A stretch of 64,000 nt of DNA from Oscillospiraceae bacterium (GCA_015067715.1 SVLY01000002.1:3657-67656), one strand, 5' to 3'; shown: positions 20,441 to 41,113, numbered from the stretch's first letter. A program made the numbers and translations. Notes: generated from the sequence alone by a model not told the origin.

Positions 20441-21667
20441 TTATTCTCCGAATTCGGCGCTGTTAATATAGAGCACCTGGCTGAAATTGTAGAGCAGGAT
20501 ATCGTCCAGCTCTTCTCCGGCATCGTACATCTCAAGGCACTTTGTGTACATGTCGATATAAGCCTGGGTCCTTGCGTAGTCTGCCGTTCCGGGAGTCTGA
20601 CCCTTTATGGTCCACTGGGCGCCCTCGAGGTTGGCTTTCGTCTGGGTCAGGAAATAGACCTCGGGGTCGTACATGTCGGGCTGGTTCAGAATATTTCCGG
20701 AGTTCAGGTAGATGGTGTCAAGTCTTTCGTTGATGGCGGCAAGCTCGTCACTCTCTGCCTTTGAGAGCTTTGAAGCGTCCCCCTCTGCGGAGAGCAAAAG
20801 CGCGTCCTTACGGGCGGTGAGCTCTTCGACCTCTTTGACAAGCTCCACCCGGTCTGCCTCGAATTTGGCAAGATCGGCTTTGTAGTCCGAAAGCATGCTT
20901 TCGGGGGTGAGCTCATACCTTCCCTGCATTTTGTTGAGCTGTTCGAAATTGTAAAGGTAAATATCGTCCATGCTCTCGCCGTTCTCGTACATTCGGAGCA
21001 TTTCGGTATACATTTCAATGTATGCCTGTTCCTCCTGCCACTCCTTGGAGCCTTCCTTCATGCCTTTCTGGTTTTTGATGCATCTTTCAAGGCTTGAGGG
21101 GATATTGTTGAGGAAAACGTTTTCCAGGTTGTAAAAATCCGGATCTTCAAGGAATATATCCTGGTTGAACTCCAGATTTTTTATTCTTGACTCAATAAGA
21201 GCCAGCTCTTCTGCTGCATTTTTGGAGAGCTTATCTCTTTCTCCGCCGGCGGTGGCAAGAAGCTTGTCTCTTCTGTTCAAAAGGCTTTCGTAATAGTTAT
21301 TTGTGTTGTCTATGACAGATTGCCTTTTGGCAAGGTCAGCCTTGTATCGCTCAAGCTGAGCCTCGGGAGACATATCCGGAACGATCTTTTCGGGATCAAG
21401 AGTTGTTCCGTTTTCGACAACGACCGGTGCCGTGGTTTGTTCGGGGGAGGCGTTTGGGGTTGGCGCTTCGGTTTGTAAATCCTCAGATCCCTCTGATGTG
21501 GGGGACTCGGTCGTTGTAGCGGTAGTAGGTGCGGTTGTTATTTCCGTTGTATGAGGAGAGACAGCAATGATGCCGTCATTTTCGGGCACAACAGAGCATC
21601 CTGTAAGCAATGCAGCTGTTGCGAGAATAAAGACAACGGAAACGAAGAAAGTAATTCTCTTTTTCAT
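20441..21667 (-). CDS. lipoprotein with an internal ~150-aa tandem duplication, function unknown
   Basis: AGGAGG plus 8 nt then ATG at 21667. Signal/lipobox ATAALLTGCS. Two repeats share YKADLAK...KLSK...QAYI(E/D)MYT...DDI(Y/L)LYNF. Confidence 0.75.
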   Translation of the reverse strand: MKKRITFFVSVVFILATAALLTGCSVVPENDGIIAVSPHTTEITTAPTTATTTESPTSEGSEDLQTEAPTPNASPEQTTAPVVVENGTTLDPEKIVPDMSPEAQLERYKADLAKRQSVIDNTNNYYESLLNRRDKLLATAGGERDKLSKNAAEELALIESRIKNLEFNQDIFLEDPDFYNLENVFLNNIPSSLERCIKNQKGMKEGSKEWQEEQAYIEMYTEMLRMYENGESMDDIYLYNFEQLNKMQGRYELTPESMLSDYKADLAKFEADRVELVKEVEELTARKDALLLSAEGDASKLSKAESDELAAINERLDTIYLNSGNILNQPDMYDPEVYFLTQTKANLEGAQWTIKGQTPGTADYARTQAYIDMYTKCLEMYDAGEELDDILLYNFSQVLYINSAEFGE

Positions 21668-21838
21668 TGACAATTCCTCCTTGTATTTATTGATGGGGAT
21701 TTCTACGTCCCGTTTTTAATACGTATGATAACTGTTATCTGTGTTAAGTTTTGCTTAGTGTATGCCTGGCTGTTTTGGCCGGGGATTCGACTGTTAACCT
21801 CCTTTACGCGGCCCCTGCGGTGTATCTGTTACATTTTA

Positions 21839-29965: not shown

Positions 29966-31060
29966 ATGGAAAAGAAGCTTAGAGTCGGCATTATCGGCAC
30001 CGGCGGAATTGCCCGTGCACATGCCCAGAAGTACATGATGATGGAGGATGTCGAGCTTGTTGCCGGTGCGGACATCGTTCCCGGCAAGGCGAGAGATTTT
30101 CTTGACGCCCGTGATCTGACCAAGGCAGAGGCCTTTGAGAGCGCACAGGAAATGCTGGAAAAGATGGAGCTTGACGCTGTCAGCGTCTGCACCTACAACC
30201 AGACCCACGCCGAGTGTACCGTTGCCGCTCTTGAGGCAGGTCTTCCCGTTTTGCTTGAAAAGCCCATGTGCGTCACCATGGAACAGGCAGGGGAGATCCT
30301 CCGTGCCGAGAAAAAGTCCGGAAAATTTGTTTCCGTCGGCTTCCAGCCCAGATATGACCCCAACTCCAAGAAGATCAAAGAGATCGTCCAGTCCGGCGAC
30401 CTCGGCAAAATATACTACGTCCAGACCGGCGGCGGCCGTCGCCGCGGCATTCCGGGAGGCACCTTTATCCGTAAGGAAACTGCCGGTGTGGGCGCTCTGG
30501 CAGATATCGGCTGCTACGGCCTCGATATGCCTCTGAACGCCCTGGGCTATCCCAAGCCCCTCACGGTCTCTGCCACCGCTTTTGACCACTTTGGCAAGAG
30601 CCCCGAAAACTCTCCCCAGTTCTGCAAGGATTTCTCCGTCGACGACTTCTCCGTGGCTCTTGTCCGCCTTGAGGGCGGCATCACCCTGGACTTCAGAATG
30701 TCCTGGGCAATGCACATGGACACCACCGGCGCGACCTTCTTCCTGGGCGACAAGGCCGGATTTAAGGTCATGCCTGCCGGCAAGGGTCAGCTCTGGGGCG
30801 GCGCATGGGACGGCACCGTTGGTTCCATGACCCTCTACCACGACAGCTACGGTATCCCCACCGAGACTCCCATTCCCTACATCACCCACAAGGTGGACGT
30901 TTTCTACGAAAAGGTCCGCGCCTTTGTTGAAGCTGTTAAGAACGGCGGCAGCGCCCCCATTCCCACCAGCGAGATCATCTACAACCAGGCCATCATCAGC
31001 GGCATTCTCGAATCCTCCCGTCTCGGTCACGAGGTCGAGGTCGTCCTGCCCGAGGTTTGA
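29966..31060 (+). CDS. Gfo/Idh/MocA family oxidoreductase
   Basis: MEKKLRVGIIGTGGIARAH Rossmann N-terminus and LLEKPM motif. Confidence 0.85.
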   Translation: MEKKLRVGIIGTGGIARAHAQKYMMMEDVELVAGADIVPGKARDFLDARDLTKAEAFESAQEMLEKMELDAVSVCTYNQTHAECTVAALEAGLPVLLEKPMCVTMEQAGEILRAEKKSGKFVSVGFQPRYDPNSKKIKEIVQSGDLGKIYYVQTGGGRRRGIPGGTFIRKETAGVGALADIGCYGLDMPLNALGYPKPLTVSATAFDHFGKSPENSPQFCKDFSVDDFSVALVRLEGGITLDFRMSWAMHMDTTGATFFLGDKAGFKVMPAGKGQLWGGAWDGTVGSMTLYHDSYGIPTETPIPYITHKVDVFYEKVRAFVEAVKNGGSAPIPTSEIIYNQAIISGILESSRLGHEVEVVLPEV

Positions 31061-31102
31061 GCCAAACAGAATTATCTGAACGTATAAAGGAGATTTTTAA
31101 CC

Positions 31103-32107
31103 ATGCTTAATATTGCAGTATGCAGCCGTTGGCATCCCCATGCAACCGGCTACGGCAGAGATTTTGCCGCACATCCCGAATGCAACGTCACCGTTATCTG
31201 GGACGAGGATCCTGTTCGCGGCGCCGAGTGGGCTAAAGAGCTCGGCTGTGACTTTGAGCCCGACTTTGACAAGGTTCTTGCCAGAGCCGACGTGGACGCT
31301 ATCTGCTCCACCGCTCCCACCAGCATGCACAAGGAGCTTTACGTAAAGGCCGCCGCCGCAGGCAAGCACATCTTCACCGAAAAGGTTCTTTCCGCCACCA
31401 AGGCCGAGGCCCTTGCCGTTAAAGAAGCAGTTGAGAAGTACGGCGTTAAGTTCGTCATCTCCTACCCCTTCCGCACCAGCGCCTCTATCATCTACGCCAA
31501 GAAGCTTATCGAGGACGGCACTCTTGGCAAGGTGAACTACGTTCGCGTTCGCAACTGCCACAACGGCATTTCCGACAACTGGCTTCCCGCCGACTTCACC
31601 AACCCCGAGACCACCGGCGGCGGCGCTATGATGGACCTTGGCGCCCACCCCATGTACATTCTCTCCTACCTGCTGGGCAAGCCCGAAAACGTCGTCTCCT
31701 GCTACAACAAGCTCTATAACACCCCTGTTGACGACAACTGCGTTTCCGTTATCGAGTTCGAGAACAAGGTCATCGCCGTCTCTGAGACCGGCTTTGTCAC
31801 CTGCGCCGATCCCTTCAGCCTCGAAGTTCACGGCACCGAGGGTTCCTTCTGCACCGGCGGCGCAGCCGGCGGTACCTGGCTCTACACCAGAAAGACCGAG
31901 GGCATGGGCGAAAAGGCCTGGATCAGACCCAACGTTCCCAAGCCCACCGTTCCCTCTGCCATCAACCAGTTTGTCGGCGCTTGCCTCCGCGACGAAGAGA
32001 TCGTCTTTGGTATCGACGACGCCATTAAGCTCTCCGAGCTTATGGAAGGCGCCTACAAGGCATGGAAAGAAGGCCGCAAGGTCGAGTTTTCCGAGCTTGA
32101 CGCTTAA
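31103..32107 (+). CDS. Gfo/Idh/MocA family oxidoreductase
   Basis: 334 aa with an FTEKV motif and the family's C-terminal alpha/beta domain. The N-terminal dinucleotide motif is degenerate. Confidence 0.75.
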   Translation: MLNIAVCSRWHPHATGYGRDFAAHPECNVTVIWDEDPVRGAEWAKELGCDFEPDFDKVLARADVDAICSTAPTSMHKELYVKAAAAGKHIFTEKVLSATKAEALAVKEAVEKYGVKFVISYPFRTSASIIYAKKLIEDGTLGKVNYVRVRNCHNGISDNWLPADFTNPETTGGGAMMDLGAHPMYILSYLLGKPENVVSCYNKLYNTPVDDNCVSVIEFENKVIAVSETGFVTCADPFSLEVHGTEGSFCTGGAAGGTWLYTRKTEGMGEKAWIRPNVPKPTVPSAINQFVGACLRDEEIVFGIDDAIKLSELMEGAYKAWKEGRKVEFSELDA

Positions 32108-32190
32108 GTTAAAAGTTTTTTGGAACAAAAAATATTCCCCCGGGTCTCCGGGGGGATATTTTGACTTTTACAGCAAAGGCAGAATCTGAT

Positions 32191-33264
32191 ATGAAAAAGC
32201 TTAACGTTGCCATAATCGGCCAGGGCAGAAGCGGTCTGCTCATCCACGGAGAGTTTTTCCTCAGCCCGGCCAACGAAAAGTTCAACGTGAAATACGTTGT
32301 GGACTACGATGAATTCCGCCGGGAAAAGGCAGAGCGGCTTTTCCCCGGGTGCGAGACCTTTGATTGCTACACAAAGCTTTTCGGCAAAACGGATATCGAC
32401 CTTGTGGTCAACGCTTCGTTTTCCGAAATGCACTATCCCATCACCCTTGATCTTTTGAACCACGGCTTCAACGTGCTGGTGGAAAAGCCCATGGGCGCAA
32501 CGGAGGAGCAGTGTTTGCGGCTTATCAAAACCGCAAAGGAAAAGGAGCTCACCCTTGCGGTCTTCCAGCAGACCTTCTTTGCCCCCTATTACGTCCACGC
32601 CAAAAAGGTTGCGGACAGCGGCCTGCTTGGGGATATCCAGCAGATAAGCGTGCGGTTCAACGGCTTTTCCCGGAGATGGGACTGGCAGACTCTTCAGAAA
32701 AAGTGCGCCGGAGGTCTTTACAACACCGGCCCCCACCCCGTGGGCATTGCTCTCGGACTTCTGGACTTTGACCCGGAGGCGCGGCTTGTGTTCAGCAGGC
32801 TTGGCCGGGCGCTGACAAGCGGCGACGCGGACGATTACGCAAAGCTGATAATCTCCGCCCCGGGAAAGCCCGTTGCGGACGTTGAGGTGAGCTCCTGCGA
32901 CGCTTTCTCTCCCTACAACATCAAGATAACCGGCTCAAAGGGCTGTCTTAAATCCACCACCACCCATTGCGACCTGGTCTGGCTTGAGGATGGCGAAAAT
33001 CCCCCCAGACCCGCAACGGAGATACCCCTGAGAAACGAAGCGGGCGAGCCCATATACTGCTCGGAAAATCTTATCCGCCACACCGAAAGCATAGATTTCA
33101 CCGGTACGGCCTTTGACACCGGCTCGAAATGTATGTACGACCAGATTTACGACAAAATCACCTCCGGCAAGCCCATGACGGTCACGCCGGAGATGGCCGC
33201 AAGGGTCGTGGGCGTTATTGCCGCGGCTCACGCTCAGAACCCCTTGAGCGTTGAATTCCTGTGA
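32191..33264 (+). CDS. Gfo/Idh/MocA family oxidoreductase
   Basis: ORF 32161..33264 trimmed to MKKLNVAIIGQGRSG. LVEKPM motif. Confidence 0.8.
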   Translation: MKKLNVAIIGQGRSGLLIHGEFFLSPANEKFNVKYVVDYDEFRREKAERLFPGCETFDCYTKLFGKTDIDLVVNASFSEMHYPITLDLLNHGFNVLVEKPMGATEEQCLRLIKTAKEKELTLAVFQQTFFAPYYVHAKKVADSGLLGDIQQISVRFNGFSRRWDWQTLQKKCAGGLYNTGPHPVGIALGLLDFDPEARLVFSRLGRALTSGDADDYAKLIISAPGKPVADVEVSSCDAFSPYNIKITGSKGCLKSTTTHCDLVWLEDGENPPRPATEIPLRNEAGEPIYCSENLIRHTESIDFTGTAFDTGSKCMYDQIYDKITSGKPMTVTPEMAARVVGVIAAAHAQNPLSVEFL

Positions 33265-34117: not shown

Positions 34118-35779
34118 TTAGCGGTATATACCTTCGTAGATCGCAAGCTGGCGCTGGACTGAGGCGCGAAGGGCTTCGATGTCCGGGTAAGCGGGGTCTT
34201 CAAGGAAGGTGCGCATGTTGTAACCATAGGCCTCTGTAGACTCGGCGTCGAAGATCCACAGGGCGTTTTTATATCTCTTGGCCCACTGGCTAAGGGCGAG
34301 AGCCTCTTCGCGGCAGTCGGAAAAGTCGGCGTTGAAATTTTCGTAAAGGTCAAAGGTTGCCCCTGTCTGAAGCTCTGCGGCGATCTCCAGGGAGTTTTCA
34401 AGGTCGAATTCCGTGGGAATGCGGTAGAGGGGATTGGGGTAGATAACGGCGTCCATGGGGTTTGCAAGGTCTGTGCGGACGCCGTTTTCAACGGTATAGC
34501 TCACGCCCTCGAGCCCCATGCACAGCGCCTGACCCAGAGCTTTGTCCGTAAGCGCAGAAATTGCAAAGTCCAGAGCCAGCTCTTTGTTTTCAGAGCCGCT
34601 TGCCACGAAAAGCGAGCATTCCGGGCCGGTTACCGAGGGGATATTGCTCAGGGGTACAACAACTCTGGGGGCGTTATGCTTTTGAAGCTCAGCATCCTTT
34701 TCAAGCTGCTTCTGGGCGATCTTGGGGTCGGTGTAGGATTCAAAATAGTAGTACATGGCGGAATCTGCCGGGTCGTTCAGCGAAAGATAACCCTCTTCCA
34801 CGATCTCTGCGTAGCCCTGCATTATCTCTTCGAACATGGGCACCTCCCAAAGGGCGAGCACCTCGGGTCCGTTTTCGGTTTCGTGGACGTAGAGCGGAAG
34901 CATGTTTATCTGGGTATAGCTTTCGTCCAGCAAAACGGAATTTATAAGCCCTTCGACGCTCGCGGTCGCCGCCAGGGCCATTTTGTTGGAATAGAGATCA
35001 CCTATGTGTGCTATTTTGTCGAGGTATGCTCTGCCGGATGTGAACCTTGATAATCTATGCTCCGGAGCTATGTTCAGAAAAACGATGTCACGAACGCTTT
35101 GGGGCTCTTCTCCCGGGAATCCGTAGCCGTTTCCGCTGGCAAGATAGCCTGCCATGCTGCTGACCTCAAGGGTGGTGGCCGAAAAACCGTATATCCTGCC
35201 GTTGTCGGAGTTTACCTTCAAAAAGGCTTCCCCGTAAATATCGCTTACGGCTTTAAGCTGGTCTTCGGTTGCCATTGAGTCGACGGGAACGATAAGCCCG
35301 TCGTTAACGTAGTCCCAAAGGGTGTCGCCGGGAATGCCCGCAAGGCCGGAAATATTGGGTCCGGGGGCAATAATGTCGCATCTGCCGCCGGCATCAACGT
35401 ATTCTCTGACCTGCATTTCAAAGGTCTTTCCCTTGCTGAGTCCGTAGTTTCCAAAGCTGTAGACCATGAGGGAAAAACCGTAGCCGTTGTCAGAGAGCCA
35501 GGTGTTGAGGGCATCGTTAAGCTCAAGGGGATAGACGTTTCCGCTGTAGCTCTGGCGGATCAGCACCAAAACGGGCTTGCCGGGGTAAGCCTTTGAGATC
35601 GCATCGTAGAGTTCGTTTGTATCGCGCACGACGTTTCGCATGCTGTATTTTTGGTTCAGATCAAATTTTTGGGGATATTGAAACTGTGTTTTCAGGTCAG
35701 GGTTTGCCGGCGCCTTTCCGCAGGCGGCAATGGACAGGGCAAGCACCAGACATAAAATTATCAAAGCTGTCTTTTTCAC
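34118..35779 (-). CDS. large extracellular solute-binding-like lipoprotein (orphan, no adjacent permeases)
   Basis: GTG at 35779 after AGGAGG. Lipobox LALSIAACG. 553 aa. Size and composition resemble family-1 solute-binding lipoproteins, but the assignment is weak. Confidence 0.65.
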   Translation of the reverse strand: MKKTALIILCLVLALSIAACGKAPANPDLKTQFQYPQKFDLNQKYSMRNVVRDTNELYDAISKAYPGKPVLVLIRQSYSGNVYPLELNDALNTWLSDNGYGFSLMVYSFGNYGLSKGKTFEMQVREYVDAGGRCDIIAPGPNISGLAGIPGDTLWDYVNDGLIVPVDSMATEDQLKAVSDIYGEAFLKVNSDNGRIYGFSATTLEVSSMAGYLASGNGYGFPGEEPQSVRDIVFLNIAPEHRLSRFTSGRAYLDKIAHIGDLYSNKMALAATASVEGLINSVLLDESYTQINMLPLYVHETENGPEVLALWEVPMFEEIMQGYAEIVEEGYLSLNDPADSAMYYYFESYTDPKIAQKQLEKDAELQKHNAPRVVVPLSNIPSVTGPECSLFVASGSENKELALDFAISALTDKALGQALCMGLEGVSYTVENGVRTDLANPMDAVIYPNPLYRIPTEFDLENSLEIAAELQTGATFDLYENFNADFSDCREEALALSQWAKRYKNALWIFDAESTEAYGYNMRTFLEDPAYPDIEALRASVQRQLAIYEGIYR

Positions 35780-35804
35780 GTTGTGTCCTCCTTTTTTTGT
35801 GTGT

Positions 35805-35959
35805 TTATTGCAGAACGAAGGAATAAGTCTCGGGATCGTAGAACCAGGGCTCGTCTATTGTTCCGTCGAGAATATCCTCTTTGGTGACGTAGAGAAGTTT
35901 CTGGGGGTAGAAATAGGTCACGTCCCTGTAGTTTTCCTTTACGGTGTAACAGTCGGGCT
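35805..35959 (-). repeat. near-identical ~155-nt 3' coding segment shared by paralogs A, B and C (copy A)
   Basis: By-eye alignment with 38338..38492 and 39476..39630 shows only a handful of substitutions. Similarity collapses immediately upstream. Confidence 0.85.
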
Positions 35960-37157
35960 CAAGGGTTCCGTCCGGGAGTATAAGATGATAGGTGAATATC
36001 AGCCCCTTTTCTGTTTCGCTGAAGAGTGTCATGGCATAGCCGGGAATGTCTACAGTTATTCGCTCGGCGGAGTCCGTGTTAACCAATTCAAAGGACTCAA
36101 AGCCGGGGTCTATAGAATAGCGGACTCCGTTGTGGTGAAATTTTTGACTGTAAGATTCTGTTTCGATGGTTAACTCAGACGGGTCGATAAGCTCTTTGGT
36201 GCTTATCCGGCAATATGACGTTTTCCCACCTGCGTAGCAGCAAAAATAATCCCTCAGGGGGTATATATCAAATATTTCAGTCCCGATGGGGAGCTTATTC
36301 CGGGATATCAGCTCATCAAGTATCACGGCACAGTCGTATACTTCGGTTTCCCCGGTTTCGATGTCAAAAGTGTACGCAGTTGCAGATTCTTCGTAAGCAA
36401 AAGAAAACTTATCTTCTGTTGCATCGTTGATTATAAAGGAGTTACTGGGAATAGTGACAGGCCTGGCAGAAACCATCCCCCATTCCTTTTTTTCGAGGTC
36501 GTAACGTGCCACCCAGTACGAATAGCGGAATTCATCCTGATTCATGGATGTCAATTCATCGATGGTCAGATTGACGTCGGTTGCAAGAGCGAAAAGACTG
36601 AGGTATATTTGTGTTCCGTAAATAACGTAAGATGATGCTGTGGAGCTGAAGTGTTTATCGAATATTTCGCCGTCATAACCCAACAGCTCTGGAGTAAAAC
36701 TAACTGTTTCGTGCTTGATTCCGTCGAGTCCGTAGTAAACCGCTTCGAGCTGGCCGTTTTTGTTGTGGGCATCTCTTATTGAAAAGATGTTGTCTTTATA
36801 TATGCCTGTGATAAGCGACGGACAAAATCCTTCGTATACCGTTCCGAAACAATCTGTTGAAGAATGGTCACAGATTGCATTGGTGCACAATGGGATGAAT
36901 GACTTCAACTCTTCGTTGAACAGATGCCTCATGATCACCCTCGTTTTTTCTCCGCCGTATTCCTTGCCTTCAAGGTCGTTAATTGCCATTTCAAGGTATG
37001 CACCGCCTTTTACGGCCATACCGTTGTCAATGACGGGGATGCGAACTGTGGGAAAGTCGGTGAGAAAAATATCGTAGGCATATTCTTCGCCCCTTCCGCA
37101 GGCGGCAAGGGGGAGTATGCTGAGGAGGGCGAGGAGGAGAAATAGAATACGTTTCAA
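35805..37157 (-). CDS. lipoprotein paralog A of an uncharacterised family (Cys/His cluster, conserved C-terminus)
   Basis: AGGAGG plus 7 nt then TTG at 37157, by analogy with paralogs B and C. Lipobox ILPLAACG. LCTNAICDHSSTDCFG. C-terminal YTVKENYRDVTYFYPQKLLYVTKEDILDGTIDEPWFYDPETYSFVLQ. Confidence 0.75.
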   Translation of the reverse strand: MKRILFLLLALLSILPLAACGRGEEYAYDIFLTDFPTVRIPVIDNGMAVKGGAYLEMAINDLEGKEYGGEKTRVIMRHLFNEELKSFIPLCTNAICDHSSTDCFGTVYEGFCPSLITGIYKDNIFSIRDAHNKNGQLEAVYYGLDGIKHETVSFTPELLGYDGEIFDKHFSSTASSYVIYGTQIYLSLFALATDVNLTIDELTSMNQDEFRYSYWVARYDLEKKEWGMVSARPVTIPSNSFIINDATEDKFSFAYEESATAYTFDIETGETEVYDCAVILDELISRNKLPIGTEIFDIYPLRDYFCCYAGGKTSYCRISTKELIDPSELTIETESYSQKFHHNGVRYSIDPGFESFELVNTDSAERITVDIPGYAMTLFSETEKGLIFTYHLILPDGTLEPDCYTVKENYRDVTYFYPQKLLYVTKEDILDGTIDEPWFYDPETYSFVLQ

Positions 37158-37226
37158 ACTGTGGCCTCCTTTTTTGGGGAGATAGGGGAGCGGCATTGGT
37201 TAGCCACTCCCCTAAGATTACTGCTT

Positions 37227-37715
37227 TTACTCTGTTACGACCGGGGGAGTGTATGCGAGAGGAATGTTGCCGTCGTTGCTTCGAGCTTGGCTTGCATACT
37301 CTACTCCGTTATGTGTTACGGAGATTTTGTAGTAGTTTTCAACTCCAAGAAGAGCAACTGAATAGTCATCAAGATTTTTTGTGACATTGGCTATAGCTTC
37401 ATTGGGGTTGGAATCTGATGCTGTGAAAGTCATGGATCTGTAATTGTTGAGATTGCTCCAAGGAGCTACCCAACATTTCACAGAAACATAAGCGAATGCA
37501 GATTCGCATTCGTGAGTTACATCGGCGGTTGCGCTTGCGATTTGGGTGCTATTTCCATATACGCCACCTCCGTACTGACCGCTGAAGTCTGCGCTACAAC
37601 CGCAATTAGGACGGGAGAAATTCATGTGGCTTATGGGAGCGGCGCTTGCCGGGATGGAGAGGAGAGCGGTCATTGTTATTACGGCGACAAGGACCAGGGT
37701 GAGTGTTCTTTTCAT
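37227..37715 (-). CDS. small secreted protein, function unknown
   Basis: AAGGAGG then ATG at 37715. Signal peptide MKRTLTLVLVAVITMTALLSIPASA. 162 aa with 5 Cys. No family recognised. Confidence 0.65.
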   Translation of the reverse strand: MKRTLTLVLVAVITMTALLSIPASAAPISHMNFSRPNCGCSADFSGQYGGGVYGNSTQIASATADVTHECESAFAYVSVKCWVAPWSNLNNYRSMTFTASDSNPNEAIANVTKNLDDYSVALLGVENYYKISVTHNGVEYASQARSNDGNIPLAYTPPVVTE

Positions 37716-37915
37716 TGTTTGTCGTCCTCCTTAAGATGAGTATAAATAGGTTATAAGGGTGTGTGCTTCAAAACAGACACAAAAAAACAGCCGCATTACT
37801 CCTGTGTTTTTGTGGCGGCAACCGCGAATGGACGGTGTGCGCTTTCCCAAAAGCAGGAATTAATACGGCTGCCTTAAAAATGTCGGGTGTGTTTTGAAGG
37901 TCAGTCTGATTGGTC
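37716..37915 (-). promoter_or_regulatory. conserved structured 5' leader, copy 2 (rod-like hairpin, U-tract, flanking inverted repeats)
   Basis: About 185 nt are nearly identical to 40826..41016. In the minus-sense RNA, CUUCAAAACACAC pairs with GUGUCUGUUUUGAAG and CAGCCGUAUUAAUUCCUG pairs with CAGGAGUAAUGCGGCUG, followed by U7. Confidence 0.6.
37781..37871 (-). terminator. terminator-like long hairpin + U7 inside leader copy 2
   Basis: 17-bp stem between 37854..37871 and 37788..37804, with a GC-rich base (CAGCCG/CGGCUG). The A-run at 37781..37787 on the plus strand gives U7 in the transcript. It lies ~65 nt upstream of the start codon. Confidence 0.5.
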
Positions 37916-38156
37916 TGCAACATATGCCCGTATCAGTCCATGGCATATGAGGGGTTCTTAAGTTGGGTTGACTACTTCTGATTGGAGCCGTTCTTAAAGA
38001 GGAACGGGTTCTGACTCTCCTTAGAGCTCGAACGGCTGAAGACTCCAAGGGGAGGCGTTGATGTGGAGGATATGGAAAACCAGTTTGCACATATCTTGTT
38101 ACCTCCTGACAGATATGGATTTTAAATTTTCAGAGGAATATATTCCCTCTAAAAAT

Positions 38157-38185
38157 ATAATAACATAAACTGTTTAATGTGTCAA
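38157..38185 (-). promoter_or_regulatory. sigma-A type promoter (TTGACA-17-TATTAT) of the 37715..34118 operon
   Basis: On the reverse strand, TTGACA is at 38185..38180 and TATTAT at 38162..38157. The near-palindrome AGAGGAATATATTCCCTCT (38132..38150) follows immediately. Confidence 0.55.
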
Positions 38186-38337
38186 TAGGTGATTTTGAAA
38201 AATCCGCTGTATAAGAATAAAACTTAGAAATAATTACCGGGCGGGGAGTAAAACTGGGTGTGACCTGAGGCAAGTTGTCAGGGAAAATTGAGAGGGAGAA
38301 ATTGACTTCTTGTTTCGCTGTGGTATTATGAGGCTAT

Positions 38338-38492
38338 TTATTGCAGAACGAAGGAATAAGTCTCGGGGTCGTAGAACCAAGGCTCGTCTATTGTTCCGTC
38401 GAGAATATCCTCTTTGGTGACGTAGAGGAATTTCAGGGGGTAGAAATAGGTCACGTCCCTGTAGTTTTCCTTTACGGTGTAGCTGTCGGGCT
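38338..38492 (-). repeat. near-identical 3' coding segment (copy B)
   Basis: See 35805..35959. Confidence 0.85.
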
Positions 38493-39450
38493 CGAGTTTT
38501 CCGTCTTCTGAAATTGTTCGCCAATAAAAGATCATGCCCTTTTCGGTTTCAGAGCAAAAAGTCAGAGAGCGGTTTTCTGTGGGTACCGACTGTTGTTTAC
38601 CCGTGACGATATTGGTCAGTATGAGCTTTTCGGAAATGGGTTCGACCAGATACAGCTCTCCGTTTTGTTCGAAGCGGTTTATGTTTTGGGCAAGCGCAAG
38701 GTAGGGGGAGTCGATGCTGAGCAGATCATTCTCAGAAAAATCCGTGAAATGTTCGAAAGAAAGATAGGGTTCGGAATTCAATTGGGTCCAGTTTTTTTCT
38801 TCAAGATCGTAGCAGAGTATCCAGTGGGCATATTCGATTTCTCCGTTTTCGAGAAACAGTGAGTCTTCGTAGCCGGGGGCTACTGTTGATATTTCGAAAT
38901 AAAGCTTTGTTCCGAAGCTGAGGTAATCGTTGTTGAGCATAGACCCGTTTTTGAGGGATTCTCCGTTGGGCATTGTAAGCTCAGGGGTGTAATCCACCGT
39001 GTCTCGGATCATCCCGTCGAGATCGTAATATATAACTTCTACACGGTCCTTATCGTTAGGTGACTCTCTTACGTCGAAAATAAGATCCTTATAAACGCCG
39101 GTTATTGTGAGGGAGTAATTTCCGTGGTAGGCATTGCCGAAACAGTCTGCGTTGCCGTGAGCGCAGGACGGTTCCATGCACAGGGGCATGAGGGTTTTTG
39201 TTTCTTCGTTAAAGAGACATCGCATTGCAACCCAGCTTTCTTCGGAATTTCGTTCTTTTCCCTGAAGGTCTTGTATATGGGTGTTAAGAAATGCGCCTCC
39301 CTTTATCGGCATACTTCTGGATATAATTGGTACATACATTTTCGGGTATTCCGGTGGGATGTAATCGTAGGTGTATTCCTCCGTCTTCCCGCAGGCGGCG
39401 AGCGGGAGTAAGCTGAGAAGGGTGAGAAGAATAAGAAGAATGCGTTTCAC
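38338..39450 (-). CDS. lipoprotein paralog B
   Basis: AGGAGG plus 7 nt then GTG at 39450. MKRILLILLTLLSLLPLAACGKTEEYTYDYIPPEYP, LCMEPSCAHGNADCFG, and the same C-terminal ~47 aa as A and C. Confidence 0.75.
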   Translation of the reverse strand: MKRILLILLTLLSLLPLAACGKTEEYTYDYIPPEYPKMYVPIISRSMPIKGGAFLNTHIQDLQGKERNSEESWVAMRCLFNEETKTLMPLCMEPSCAHGNADCFGNAYHGNYSLTITGVYKDLIFDVRESPNDKDRVEVIYYDLDGMIRDTVDYTPELTMPNGESLKNGSMLNNDYLSFGTKLYFEISTVAPGYEDSLFLENGEIEYAHWILCYDLEEKNWTQLNSEPYLSFEHFTDFSENDLLSIDSPYLALAQNINRFEQNGELYLVEPISEKLILTNIVTGKQQSVPTENRSLTFCSETEKGMIFYWRTISEDGKLEPDSYTVKENYRDVTYFYPLKFLYVTKEDILDGTIDEPWFYDPETYSFVLQ

Positions 39451-39475
39451 GTTGTGTCCTCCTTTTTTTGTGTGT

Positions 39476-39630
39476 TTATTGCAGAACGAATGAATAAGTC
39501 TCGGGGTCGTAGAACCAGGGCTCGTCTATTGTTCCGTCGAGAATATCCTCTTTGGTGACGTAGAGGAATTTCCGGGGGTAGAAATAGGTCACGTCCCTGT
39601 AGTTTTCCTTTACGGTGTAGCAGTCGGGAC
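39476..39630 (-). repeat. near-identical 3' coding segment (copy C)
   Basis: See 35805..35959. The 25 nt downstream of the stop (39451..39475) are identical to 35780..35804. Confidence 0.85.
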
Positions 39631-40825
39631 CTATACTTCCGTCTTCAAGCAGATCTCTGTAGCTGAATATTATTCCGTTTTCGGTCTCGCTGAAAAATGA
39701 CATGATTATCCCGGGAGTTTCAACGTCTGTTCTTTCGTTGGTGTTACAGTTGGTAAAGGTGAACTGACCTGCCATTGATTCTGTTGTGTAAAGGCATTCG
39801 CTGTACGTGAATCTATTGGTTCCGCCAACGGTCAGATAACGTGCTTCAGACGGGTCAATAAACTCTTTTGTACTGATGCGGATATAATAAGTTTTGTCTC
39901 TCTGATAGCAGTCGAAGAAATCTCCCGTGGGATAAATACCGGCGATCATAGTTCCTGTTGGCAGCTCGCCTTTGGCGATCTTTTCGTCAAGAATTGCGGC
40001 ACAGTCATATTCCGTGACTTCTCCGGTGGATATATCCACTGTATATCCCACACCGTTGTTTTGAAGTGTAAGCATACTTTCGTTTGCATCTCTGAAATTC
40101 AAAAACTGGGCATCGGTGGAATGGGGGAAGGTGGCAATATAGCTCCATTCCCTGTTGTCAAGGTCATAACACACGACCCAATGGAAGTACTTAAGCTGTG
40201 ACTGGTCTAACAACACCCATTCGTTATCTCCGGTGTTCAGTGCAGATAGCTGTATATATACTTTTGATCCAATAACAGTGAATATTTGGGACATATATAC
40301 TGTGTTTTCCAAAGGGGAGCCGTCGGGGAAGAAGAGCGCCGGAGTGAATAGAACGGTATCCTTTATTGTGCCGTCGAGACCGTAGTAAACTGTCTCAAGC
40401 AAACCGTTTGCGTTAGTGTGCCCTTTTTGTTTATACGTCTCTTTAATAATAAACACACTGTCCTCGTAAATTCCGGAATAGGACGTATTTGAATGACCGT
40501 ATAAATCACCGAAGCATCCGACGGTATCGTGAGTGCAGTTCGGGTCTGTACACAAGGGGGCAATGGTTTTTGTATGTTCTGAAAATATGCTGACCATGGC
40601 CACATCAGACTGCTCTGAGTTTTTTTCCTTTCCGTCAAGTTCGTGTTTAGCTATATACAGAAAGGCGCCGCCTTTTATCTTTTTGTTTGCAAGACTTCCG
40701 AGACTCATTCTGATCTCGGGGTATTCCGGTGGGATGTAATCGTAGGTGTATTCCTCTGTCTTCCCGCAGGCGGCGAGCGGGAGTAAGCAGAGGAGGGCAA
40801 GAAGAATAAACAGAATGCGTTTCAC
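39476..40825 (-). CDS. lipoprotein paralog C
   Basis: AAGGAGG plus 7 nt then GTG at 40825. MKRILFILLALLCLLPLAACGKTEEYTYDYIPPEYP, LCTDPNCTHDTVGCFG, and the conserved C-terminus. Confidence 0.75.
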   Translation of the reverse strand: MKRILFILLALLCLLPLAACGKTEEYTYDYIPPEYPEIRMSLGSLANKKIKGGAFLYIAKHELDGKEKNSEQSDVAMVSIFSEHTKTIAPLCTDPNCTHDTVGCFGDLYGHSNTSYSGIYEDSVFIIKETYKQKGHTNANGLLETVYYGLDGTIKDTVLFTPALFFPDGSPLENTVYMSQIFTVIGSKVYIQLSALNTGDNEWVLLDQSQLKYFHWVVCYDLDNREWSYIATFPHSTDAQFLNFRDANESMLTLQNNGVGYTVDISTGEVTEYDCAAILDEKIAKGELPTGTMIAGIYPTGDFFDCYQRDKTYYIRISTKEFIDPSEARYLTVGGTNRFTYSECLYTTESMAGQFTFTNCNTNERTDVETPGIIMSFFSETENGIIFSYRDLLEDGSIGPDCYTVKENYRDVTYFYPRKFLYVTKEDILDGTIDEPWFYDPETYSFVLQ

Positions 40826-41016
40826 GTTGTGTCCTCCTTAAGATGAGTATAAATGGGGAATACGGGTGTGTGCTTCAAAACAAACACAAAAAACAGCCGC
40901 ATTACTCCTGTGTTTTGTGGCGGCAACCGCGAATGGACGGTGTGCGCTTTCCCAAAAGCAGGAATTAATACGGCTGCCTTAAAAATGTCGGGTGTGTTTT
41001 GAAGGTCAGTCTGATT
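40826..41016 (-). promoter_or_regulatory. conserved structured 5' leader, copy 1
   Basis: Over the ~150-nt core it matches 37716..37915 apart from one substitution and two 1-nt homopolymer indels. A short divergent block lies near the SD. Confidence 0.6.
40888..40976 (-). terminator. terminator-like long hairpin + U6 inside leader copy 1
   Basis: Stem between 40959..40976 and 40894..40910. The A-run at 40888..40893 on the plus strand gives the U-tract. Confidence 0.5.
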
Positions 41017-41084
41017 AAATTTCGTCATGCGCCCAATCAGAGTAATGGCACATGAGGGAGTATTTGGTTATTGTTCACAGGTAT

Positions 41085-41113
41085 ATGATAACACATAATA
41101 TTGAGTATGTCAA
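41085..41113 (-). promoter_or_regulatory. sigma-A type promoter (TTGACA-17-TATCAT) of the 40825..38338 operon
   Basis: On the reverse strand, TTGACA is at 41113..41108 and TATCAT at 41090..41085. Confidence 0.55.

Follow-up and report, generated by a model that had tools for sequence, protein, structure and literature searches.

The subject of this analysis is a cluster of lipoprotein genes with near-identical ends and divergent cores, which lies in a 64,000-nt stretch of DNA (hereafter the window) from an Oscillospiraceae bacterium (GCA_015067715.1 SVLY01000002.1:3657-67656). The source is a metagenome-derived genome labelled Ruminococcaceae/Oscillospiraceae bacterium. The locus consists of five genes arranged head to tail on the minus strand, annotated here as C, B, s162, A, and L553; P, gap segment, and G are our labels for further parts of the locus that are introduced below. 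Three of the genes (A, B, and C) are paralogs, and the coordinates and lengths that an earlier note on this DNA had assigned to them (450, 370, and 449 aa, respectively) agree with the open reading frames.

39476..40825 (-), paralog C, a 449-aa lipoprotein with a GTG start and a predicted all-beta, propeller-like fold
38338..39450 (-), paralog B, 370 aa with a GTG start, a short form that lacks ~80 central residues as compared to A and C
37227..37715 (-), s162, a 162-aa small secreted Cys-containing protein, conserved member of the cluster
35805..37157 (-), paralog A, a 450-aa lipoprotein when read from TTG 37157
34118..35779 (-), L553, a 553-aa lipoprotein with the lipobox SIAAC/G, which closes the cluster

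The signal MKRILxxLL..LPLAAC/G opens A, B, and C, and its lipobox fits the pattern [LVI][ASTVI][GAS]C, by which all three are predicted to be Lgt/Lsp-type lipoproteins. Each also carries the Cys/His cluster PLCxxxxCxHxxxxCFG, and the last 47 aa vary at just one Q/L/R and one L/F position, so that the three protein features named in the earlier note are all present. Every copy is full length and has its own ribosome-binding site. The ~80-residue gap of B is shared with four other family members (P0041, P0042, P0047, and P0054). In the public annotation, A starts at ATG 37196, giving 463 aa; TTG 37157 appears to be the better start because it sits after AAAGGAGG with the same spacing as that found at the GTG starts of B and C. 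The only NCBI-accessioned entry in the protein cluster of B, MBE6937056.1, is 295 aa as compared to 370 aa for B, and the public annotation of the source genome seems to mis-call two starts (A and B).

To compare the paralogs at the DNA level, their genes were codon aligned and third-position identity was scored in 15-codon windows. Identity is 0.14-0.58 in the cores (about 0.3 throughout), where protein identity is 35-39%, as compared to 0.80-1.00 in the last ~52 codons. We also determined the same-codon fraction, which is the share of identical residues that are encoded by one codon in both copies. For pairs among A, B, and C, 42-43 of the 44-45 identical tail residues use the same codon, as compared to 44-45% in the cores (Fisher test, p 7e-11 to 9e-10), and across all paralog pairs of the species the fraction is 0.93-0.98 in tails and 0.42-0.49 in cores. 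The earlier observation, made by eye, that the last ~155 nt are almost identical and the cores divergent is thereby put on a quantitative footing; over these ~155 nt, the three genes have 93-98% DNA identity.

The homogenised block begins sharply at CCCGAC, ~153 nt upstream of the stop, and for A and C it runs past the stop through an identical 25-nt spacer to the start codon of the next gene (blocks at about 35774-35957, 38338-38490, and 39445-39628). The window contains exactly three occurrences of the tail sequence, with 0 expected by chance. Both spacers (35780-35804 and 39451-39475) supply the Shine-Dalgarno site and the GTG of the gene that follows, as the earlier note had described. That note had also put the shared 5' end of B and C at ~105 nt; we find 121 nt with 94% identity, and the C unit is 71% identical to the copy in A. 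The junction units are direct repeats, and the longest exact runs common to them are 46-76 nt.

39445..39628 (-), junction unit 1, the C tail (153 nt), the 25-nt spacer with Shine-Dalgarno site, and the B start; repeat family D1
38338..38490 (-), junction unit 2, the B tail; the spacer behind it is decayed and leads to no gene
35774..35957 (-), junction unit 3, the A tail, the identical 25-nt spacer, and the L553 start
40719..40839 (-), shared 5' unit of C, with Shine-Dalgarno site, GTG, and signal-peptide and lipobox codons; repeat family D2
39344..39464 (-), shared 5' unit of B, the other D2 copy

In three contigs of related strains (L004, L007, and L008, of Type III as defined below), the A-run of the spacer upstream of the Shine-Dalgarno site is a length-variable homopolymer that seems to be one base shorter than in the window, a length that was read from a frame shift in an ungapped dot alignment and not counted explicitly.

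Gene order in related strains

Contigs from other samples (L001, L004, and L006-L009) have flanks that are 97-98.6% identical to the window. Together with the window, they present three arrangements of the locus, in which P is a leader repeat and the gap segment is a stretch upstream of s162, both of which are detailed further below.

Type I: P-C-B-[gap-P-s162-A]-L553, in the window only
Type II: P-C-[gap-P-s162-A]-B-L553, in L001 and L006 (two samples)
Type III: P-G-B-L553, entire in L007 and in two pieces (L009 + L008) from another sample; L004 shows B-L553

It is the position of the B core that sets Types I and II apart, and all breakpoints between the arrangements fall in the junction unit or in the shared 5' end. 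The G gene of Type III encodes 446 aa and is a mosaic allele. Its first ~66 nt are C-like, a unique core follows, and the sequence then matches the 3' third of A at about 80% identity; from about codon 391, G and A share an extended tail. Along the gene, nucleotide identity between G and A is 0.91, 0.4-0.6, 0.76-0.80, about 0.5, and 0.92-0.98. The earlier note had staked its recombination reading on the locus not being static; three gene orders and a mosaic allele in such close strains indicate, as far as the assemblies can be trusted, that it is not.

One alternative is that the ~155-190-nt repeats were mis-assembled, which would make the varying gene order an artefact and leave only the homogenisation of the ends as real. 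Type I is found only in the window's own contig, and contigs L004, L005, L008, and L009 end exactly at tails, both of which fit an artefact. Against this, Type II was assembled twice independently, Type III was recovered complete once and as separate halves from a second sample, and the G allele is not obtainable by mis-joining A, B, and C. In addition, the exact repeats are at most 76 nt, which is shorter than the k=141 used to assemble L001 and L006, and this argues against simple mis-joins in these two assemblies. We therefore regard a wholesale artefact as unlikely. The junction repeats do break metagenome assemblies and may mis-order them, which is a practical warning for work on such loci.

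Homogenisation of the ends and its alternatives

To place the shared ends in a wider context, we aligned 38 family members, which extend down to ~20% identity. The C-terminal tail is the best-conserved protein segment across the whole family (consensus YVTKEDxxDGxIDEPWYYDxETGxF), four residues of the Cys/His cluster are invariant (C92, C97, H99, and C104; C-x4-C-x-H-x4-C), and the lipobox Cys is nearly so. The tail and the signal peptide are thus under constraint at the protein level throughout the family.

Identity at the DNA level follows a different pattern, which emerges from other, deeply diverged lineages that carry family genes (L002, L003, L010-L012, L013, and L016). As compared to L002, L003, and L010-L012, the tails have 64-77% protein identity and a same-codon fraction of 0.41-0.69, near the core background of 0.35-0.49. 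The tails of A, B, and C are 100% identical within the genome and at most 86% identical across lineages, so that they group strictly by genome, whereas the cores of A, B, and C are 0.40-0.45 identical in protein to genes of other lineages and 0.36-0.39 identical among themselves. This incongruence of core and tail bears the signature of concerted evolution.

Traces of recent exchange are found within the species as well. SNPs (single-nucleotide polymorphisms) in the tails form a patchwork that is shared among paralogs and strains. The C gene of L001 begins with B-type sequence: its 5' end matches that of the window's B at 98% identity, as compared to 94% between the window's own C and B, which marks a recent conversion. 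The tails of paralogs diverge by 1-3%, which is within the range of between-strain synonymous divergence (dS) at the locus (0.014-0.061), and therefore homogenisation is ongoing on the time scale of strain divergence. Together with the incongruence of cores and tails, these traces show gene conversion or homologous recombination, in line with the earlier note.

The same pattern has arisen independently in the L016 lineage. Its three paralogs have cores that are 20-45% identical and last 20 codons with 96-98% DNA identity (16-17 of 17 codons identical). Three 36-37-nt spacers, one of them before the L553 homolog, are near-identical, and two of the paralogs share their 5' end. The junction sequences of L016 are unrelated to those of the window. 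The L011/L012 lineage may be a third case with older or partial homogenisation: proteins P0003, P0004, and P0007 have near-identical tail peptides (..YVYVTKEDILDGNIDEPWYYDAETYSFVQ.), the cores are about 41% identical (P0007/P0003 pair), and the same-codon fraction is 0.72 in tails as compared to 0.43 in the core.

These data bear on the possibility, also raised in the earlier note, that the ends are constrained at the nucleotide level because tail and spacer form a functional DNA or RNA element, for example a structured mRNA region, a site for processing or stability, a translational coupling device, or a binding site. The spacer does carry the Shine-Dalgarno site and the start of the next gene, and the block of tail, spacer, and start is homogenised in the second lineage, L016, as well. 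However, the predicted structure of the unit is not significant relative to shuffled sequence (z +0.28 in the window and +1.17 in L016), an Rfam scan of 33.5-41.5 kb gave no match for this unit or for P, and the window and L016 units are unrelated in sequence. The B tail is equally conserved even though no gene follows it in the window, and across lineages there is no nucleotide conservation, or excess of codon identity, beyond what the protein requires. Since tail DNA identity is lineage-bound while the tail protein is conserved family-wide, a family-wide nucleotide-level element is excluded, and we consider an element of this kind improbable in general.

Very improbable, in turn, and contradicted by the synonymous sites, is that protein need alone, in the form of purifying selection and codon preference without any DNA exchange, has kept the ends alike. 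Such an account is consistent with a tail that stays the best-conserved segment down to ~20% overall identity, but in the same genes the same-codon fraction is 0.93-0.98 in tails and about 0.44 in cores, and equally protein-conserved tails elsewhere use other codons (0.41-0.69). The non-coding 25-nt spacers are identical too, and core and tail similarities are incongruent.

We give just as little credence to a programmed cassette system with a dedicated recombinase, whether integron-like, a shufflon, or silent cassettes with an expression site. As such a system would produce, one core sits in two different slots and there is a mosaic allele, but the ~10 kb to either side of the locus contains no gene for a recombinase, integrase, or transposase in the window or in L001, and A/T tracts are the only inverted repeats found around the promoters or cores. 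The junction units are directly repeated and lack hairpin potential, and silent cassettes are absent in that all copies are full length and each has a ribosome-binding site of its own. The interpretation in the earlier note is thus supported in part: gene conversion or recombination is borne out, and nothing points to programmed antigenic variation. Least credible of all, and already contradicted by the data, is a recent duplication after which positive selection drove the cores apart rapidly and the ends had no time to change. The between-strain ratio of nonsynonymous to synonymous divergence (dN/dS) is above that of most flanking genes, which speaks for it, but stays below 1. The synonymous sites of the cores are saturated (third-position identity about 0.3 and a same-codon fraction of about 0.44, the level seen for distant lineages), and no core is closer to its neighbours than to genes of other lineages. 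The dN/dS values, 0.2-0.6 for locus genes as compared to 0.01-0.13 for most flanking genes and 0.29 for the flank gene DUF8091, mean relaxed or mildly diversifying selection and not strong positive selection.

Taken together, our favored explanation, which we hold to be likely, is that protein constraint combined with within-species gene conversion or homologous recombination accounts for the conserved ends and divergent cores. Strong purifying selection acts family-wide on the C-terminal ~45 residues, the lipoprotein signal, and the Cys3-His motif; this part was not considered in the earlier note, whose explanation was incomplete in that purifying selection is half of the account. The tail, together with a conserved EYxYD strand just past the lipid anchor, may close the propeller or contact a shared partner. 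By slowing the divergence of the ends, the constraint would keep them competent for recombination, and general homologous recombination could then both homogenise the ends and reassort the cores. The block of 3' tail, 25-nt spacer, and signal-peptide codons of the next gene is homogenised repeatedly among the paralogs and the old, divergent cores are spared, possibly because mismatches abort the conversion tracts that enter a core or because selection for distinct cores removes them. The cores may be held apart by selection for surface diversity.

Crossovers in these ~155-200-nt junction blocks would also have translocated, deleted or inserted, and recombined whole cores between strains. A probable route is general RecA-type recombination, be it by unequal crossing-over, by excision of a circle and its reintegration, or by import from other strains; exact runs of 46-76 nt are long enough for RecA-type recombination. 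That constraint acts on tail and signal peptide and that homogenisation is restricted to lineages are firm components of this explanation; the rearrangements and mosaics with breakpoints in the blocks are equally apparent from the contigs, subject to the reservation about assembly.

Several observations weigh against the combination of constraint and recombination. All of the compared sequences are metagenome assemblies, and Type I rests on a single one, in which a mis-join at the repeats is possible. The tail SNPs show no single clean crossover between Types I and II and form a patchwork instead. Finally, homogenisation is weak or absent in L003 and in L010 with L011, and it is therefore not an obligatory trait of the family.

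Leader repeats and flanking features

A second repeat of ~190 nt, referred to as P and missed by the earlier note, occurs upstream of C and of s162 with about 95-100% identity between the copies. Each copy contains a long hairpin followed by a U tract and is preceded by a short hairpin (near 37925-37960 and 41025-41060). The short hairpin shows a compensatory change between the copies (CATATGCC/GGCATATG as compared to CATGTGCC/GGCGCATG). P could be a terminator or an attenuator-type leader. Blastn found no P-like sequence outside the species, and no obvious counterpart of P was seen in the leaders of L010 and L016. The promoters listed here are matches to the consensus only.

40831..41016 (-), repeat P, C copy, a ~190-nt leader with a long hairpin and then a U tract; repeat families D3, D7, and D10; fold z -5.9
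37724..37911 (-), repeat P, s162 copy, with a long hairpin and then a U tract; fold z -6.5
41085..41113 (-), near-consensus sigma-70-like promoter, TTGACA-17-TATCAT with TG, upstream of P and C
38157..38185 (-), near-consensus sigma-70-like promoter, TTGACA-17-TATTAT with TG, in the 426-nt gap upstream of P and s162
37912..38337 (-), gap segment, which moves with P, s162, and A between the strain arrangements (blastn of the window against L001 and L006)

The base composition of the locus is distinct from its surroundings, with a G+C content of 44-46% over 36-41 kb as compared to ~55% around it. At third codon positions, the G+C content (GC3) is 0.45-0.55 for A, B, C, and s162, 0.64 for L553, and 0.66-0.75 for the flanking housekeeping genes. 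The low GC3 of the module suggests a foreign origin or different codon constraints.

Between-strain dS is uneven beside the locus. When the window is compared to L001 and L006 over 29966-33264, dS is 0.22-0.24 for a GFO/IDH/MocA gene (29966-31060) and 0.08-0.10 for the next two genes; it is 0.014-0.05 in the lipoprotein locus and rightward. The unevenness at 29966-33264 suggests that imported DNA segments lie beside the locus. A separate gene for a 410-aa lipoprotein is located at 20441-21673 (-) in a low-G+C stretch (43.7%, with strong AT skew). Its two halves resemble each other (YKADLAK...LSK...MYD/ENGE..DDI.LYNF), which represents an internal duplication unrelated to the A/B/C family.

Protein family, conserved cluster, and known parallels

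The family of A, B, and C is rare and unnamed. A word-indexed search of 5.8 billion proteins returned 10 family clusters, and a profile search of 1.84 billion proteins returned 55 representative clusters; neither Pfam nor NCBIfam has a model for the family. When A, B, C, s162, and L553 were scanned with Pfam, NCBIfam, PADLOC, and PHROGs, all matches were below threshold or at the level of the signal peptide, and Pfam and NCBIfam searches at E <= 1 gave no DUF576/Lpl match for A, B, or C, signal-peptide hits aside. The Kelch repeat model PF01344 matched one stretch of C with 11.8 bits, below its cut-off of 20.1 (E 0.17). No match was found in the PDB with the family profile or with L553 and s162 as single sequences. 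Scans of GTDB representative genomes, of JGI metagenome contigs (by peptide and exact DNA), and of IMG/VR viral contigs likewise gave no relative. The earlier note could not place the family in any characterised group, and these searches leave it there.

An AlphaFold2 model of C is all-beta, with a predicted local distance difference test score (pLDDT) of 80.6 and a predicted template modeling score (pTM) of 0.80. When this model was submitted to Foldseek, nearly all of the top matches were beta-propellers (NirF, YncE, tetrathionate hydrolase, WD40, and Kelch) with a probability of 1.0 and E values of 1e-6 to 1e-8, but with template modeling scores (TM-scores) of only 0.2-0.37. In its predicted fold, C would share with YncE, NirF, and tetrathionate hydrolase an all-beta structure of repeated four-stranded sheets, and it differs from them in that the family has no sequence similarity to these propellers and the TM-scores are low. 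An all-beta, propeller-like fold class is probable for C, in line with the beta-propeller guessed at in the earlier note.

A Pfam scan of the 38 family members identified BlaR1 M56 as the sole domain, in one fusion protein. In this protein (P0049, 719 aa, a public representative from outside the window), the family domain follows a BlaR1-type M56 sensor-protease module (Pfam E 2.7e-27) that contains HExxH. The arrangement hints that the propeller domain can serve as an extracellular sensor with a ligand-binding role.

The neighbours of the paralogs recur in other lineages. L016 encodes a small secreted protein, family genes of 470, 450, and 488 aa, and, last, an L553 homolog of 588 aa. In L013, a truncated family gene lies upstream of a small secreted protein, a 408-aa family gene, and a 537-aa L553 homolog, and L010 has a 442-aa family gene, an s162 homolog (54% identity), and a second truncated family gene. 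The s162-like neighbours (L010, L016, and L013) and the L553-like neighbours (L013 and L016) are true homologs of the window proteins. Judged from these gene contexts, a small secreted protein, one to three family lipoproteins, and a large lipoprotein form a conserved three-component cluster.

The large lipoprotein, L553, is possibly a very divergent protein with a solute-binding-protein-like fold. A profile built from six homologs matched three solute-binding proteins in the PDB at a marginal E of about 0.003 over ~150 residues, Pfam gave no match of L553 to solute-binding proteins, and no permease genes are adjacent to L553. An AlphaFold2 model of L553 from the six homologs was unusable (pLDDT 40.5).

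The closest analogue of the locus is the tandem lipoprotein cluster lpl of Staphylococcus aureus, which it resembles in how it works and not in protein family. In the lpl genes of nuSa-alpha, each of the tandem lipoprotein-like paralogs contains a highly conserved nucleotide block that is a site of homologous recombination, and between strains, units have been deleted, translocated, converted, or substituted (Tsuru and Kobayashi 2008, PMC2568036). What evolves as a unit there reaches from the 3' part of one gene across the intergenic region into the 5' part of the adjacent gene, and the schemes proposed by these authors are excision of a circle with reintegration or repeated unequal crossing-over (PMC2568036). 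The difference between Types I and II, in the position of the B core, is exactly what either scheme produces. Both loci have tandem lipoprotein paralogs in a Gram-positive host, a conserved block in each, and rearrangements broken in the block, which here are taken from metagenome assemblies with a single source for Type I. In lpl, however, the block is central and its flanks are variable, whereas here the 3' end, spacer, and 5' end are conserved and the core is variable. Moreover, the two families have no sequence relationship, as the lack of a DUF576 match indicates, the fold at the window locus is predicted to be propeller-like, and the host is an uncultured, metagenome-assembled member of the Oscillospiraceae/Ruminococcaceae.

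Hop/Bab paralogs of Helicobacter pylori also have near-identical 5' and 3' ends and divergent middles, and they undergo inter-locus gene conversion that yields chimeras. Strains differ in the allele that occupies each slot, and a role in host adhesion is established. These paralogs are outer-membrane beta-barrels of a Gram-negative organism encoded at dispersed loci. The likeness to the window genes lies in conserved ends and divergent cores; the window genes, in contrast, are tandem lipoproteins of an unrelated family.

Borrelia vlsE/vls (for vlsE, see PMC9159922) and Mycoplasma vsa/vlp are surface lipoprotein systems that are diversified by recombination and also have conserved ends around variable regions. 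Switching there relies on silent cassettes with a single expression site, on site-specific invertases, or on slipped-strand tracts, and no such feature was found at the window locus. Integron arrays are comparable in that each open reading frame is followed by a repeated junction element and unit order varies between strains, but the window locus has no integrase or attC-like hairpin, and its junction is an intragenic direct repeat that encodes a conserved protein segment.

No new mechanism is proposed here and no concept is overturned, as the mechanism has already been described for S. aureus lpl and for Helicobacter outer-membrane paralogs. What is new is the protein family, and what was already known is the variation of surface proteins by recombination at shared ends. 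The unnamed family and its three-component cluster in uncultured Oscillospiraceae/Clostridia deserve a name and a structure. One speculative reading, for which we see only a small chance, is that the cluster is an undescribed modular cell-surface system of these organisms, in which the invariant tail docks interchangeable propeller "heads" on s162 or L553 and its DNA doubles as the recombination handle for head swapping. A ligand-sensing role for the propeller would fit this reading because P0049 fuses the domain to a BlaR1-type sensor protease and, if the reading is true, head swapping would give diversification of receptors or ligand range in populations. Regardless, the locus offers a natural experiment, seen independently in two distant lineages, in which a short, constrained end module keeps DNA recombinable and recombination in turn homogenises the module and reshuffles the cores.

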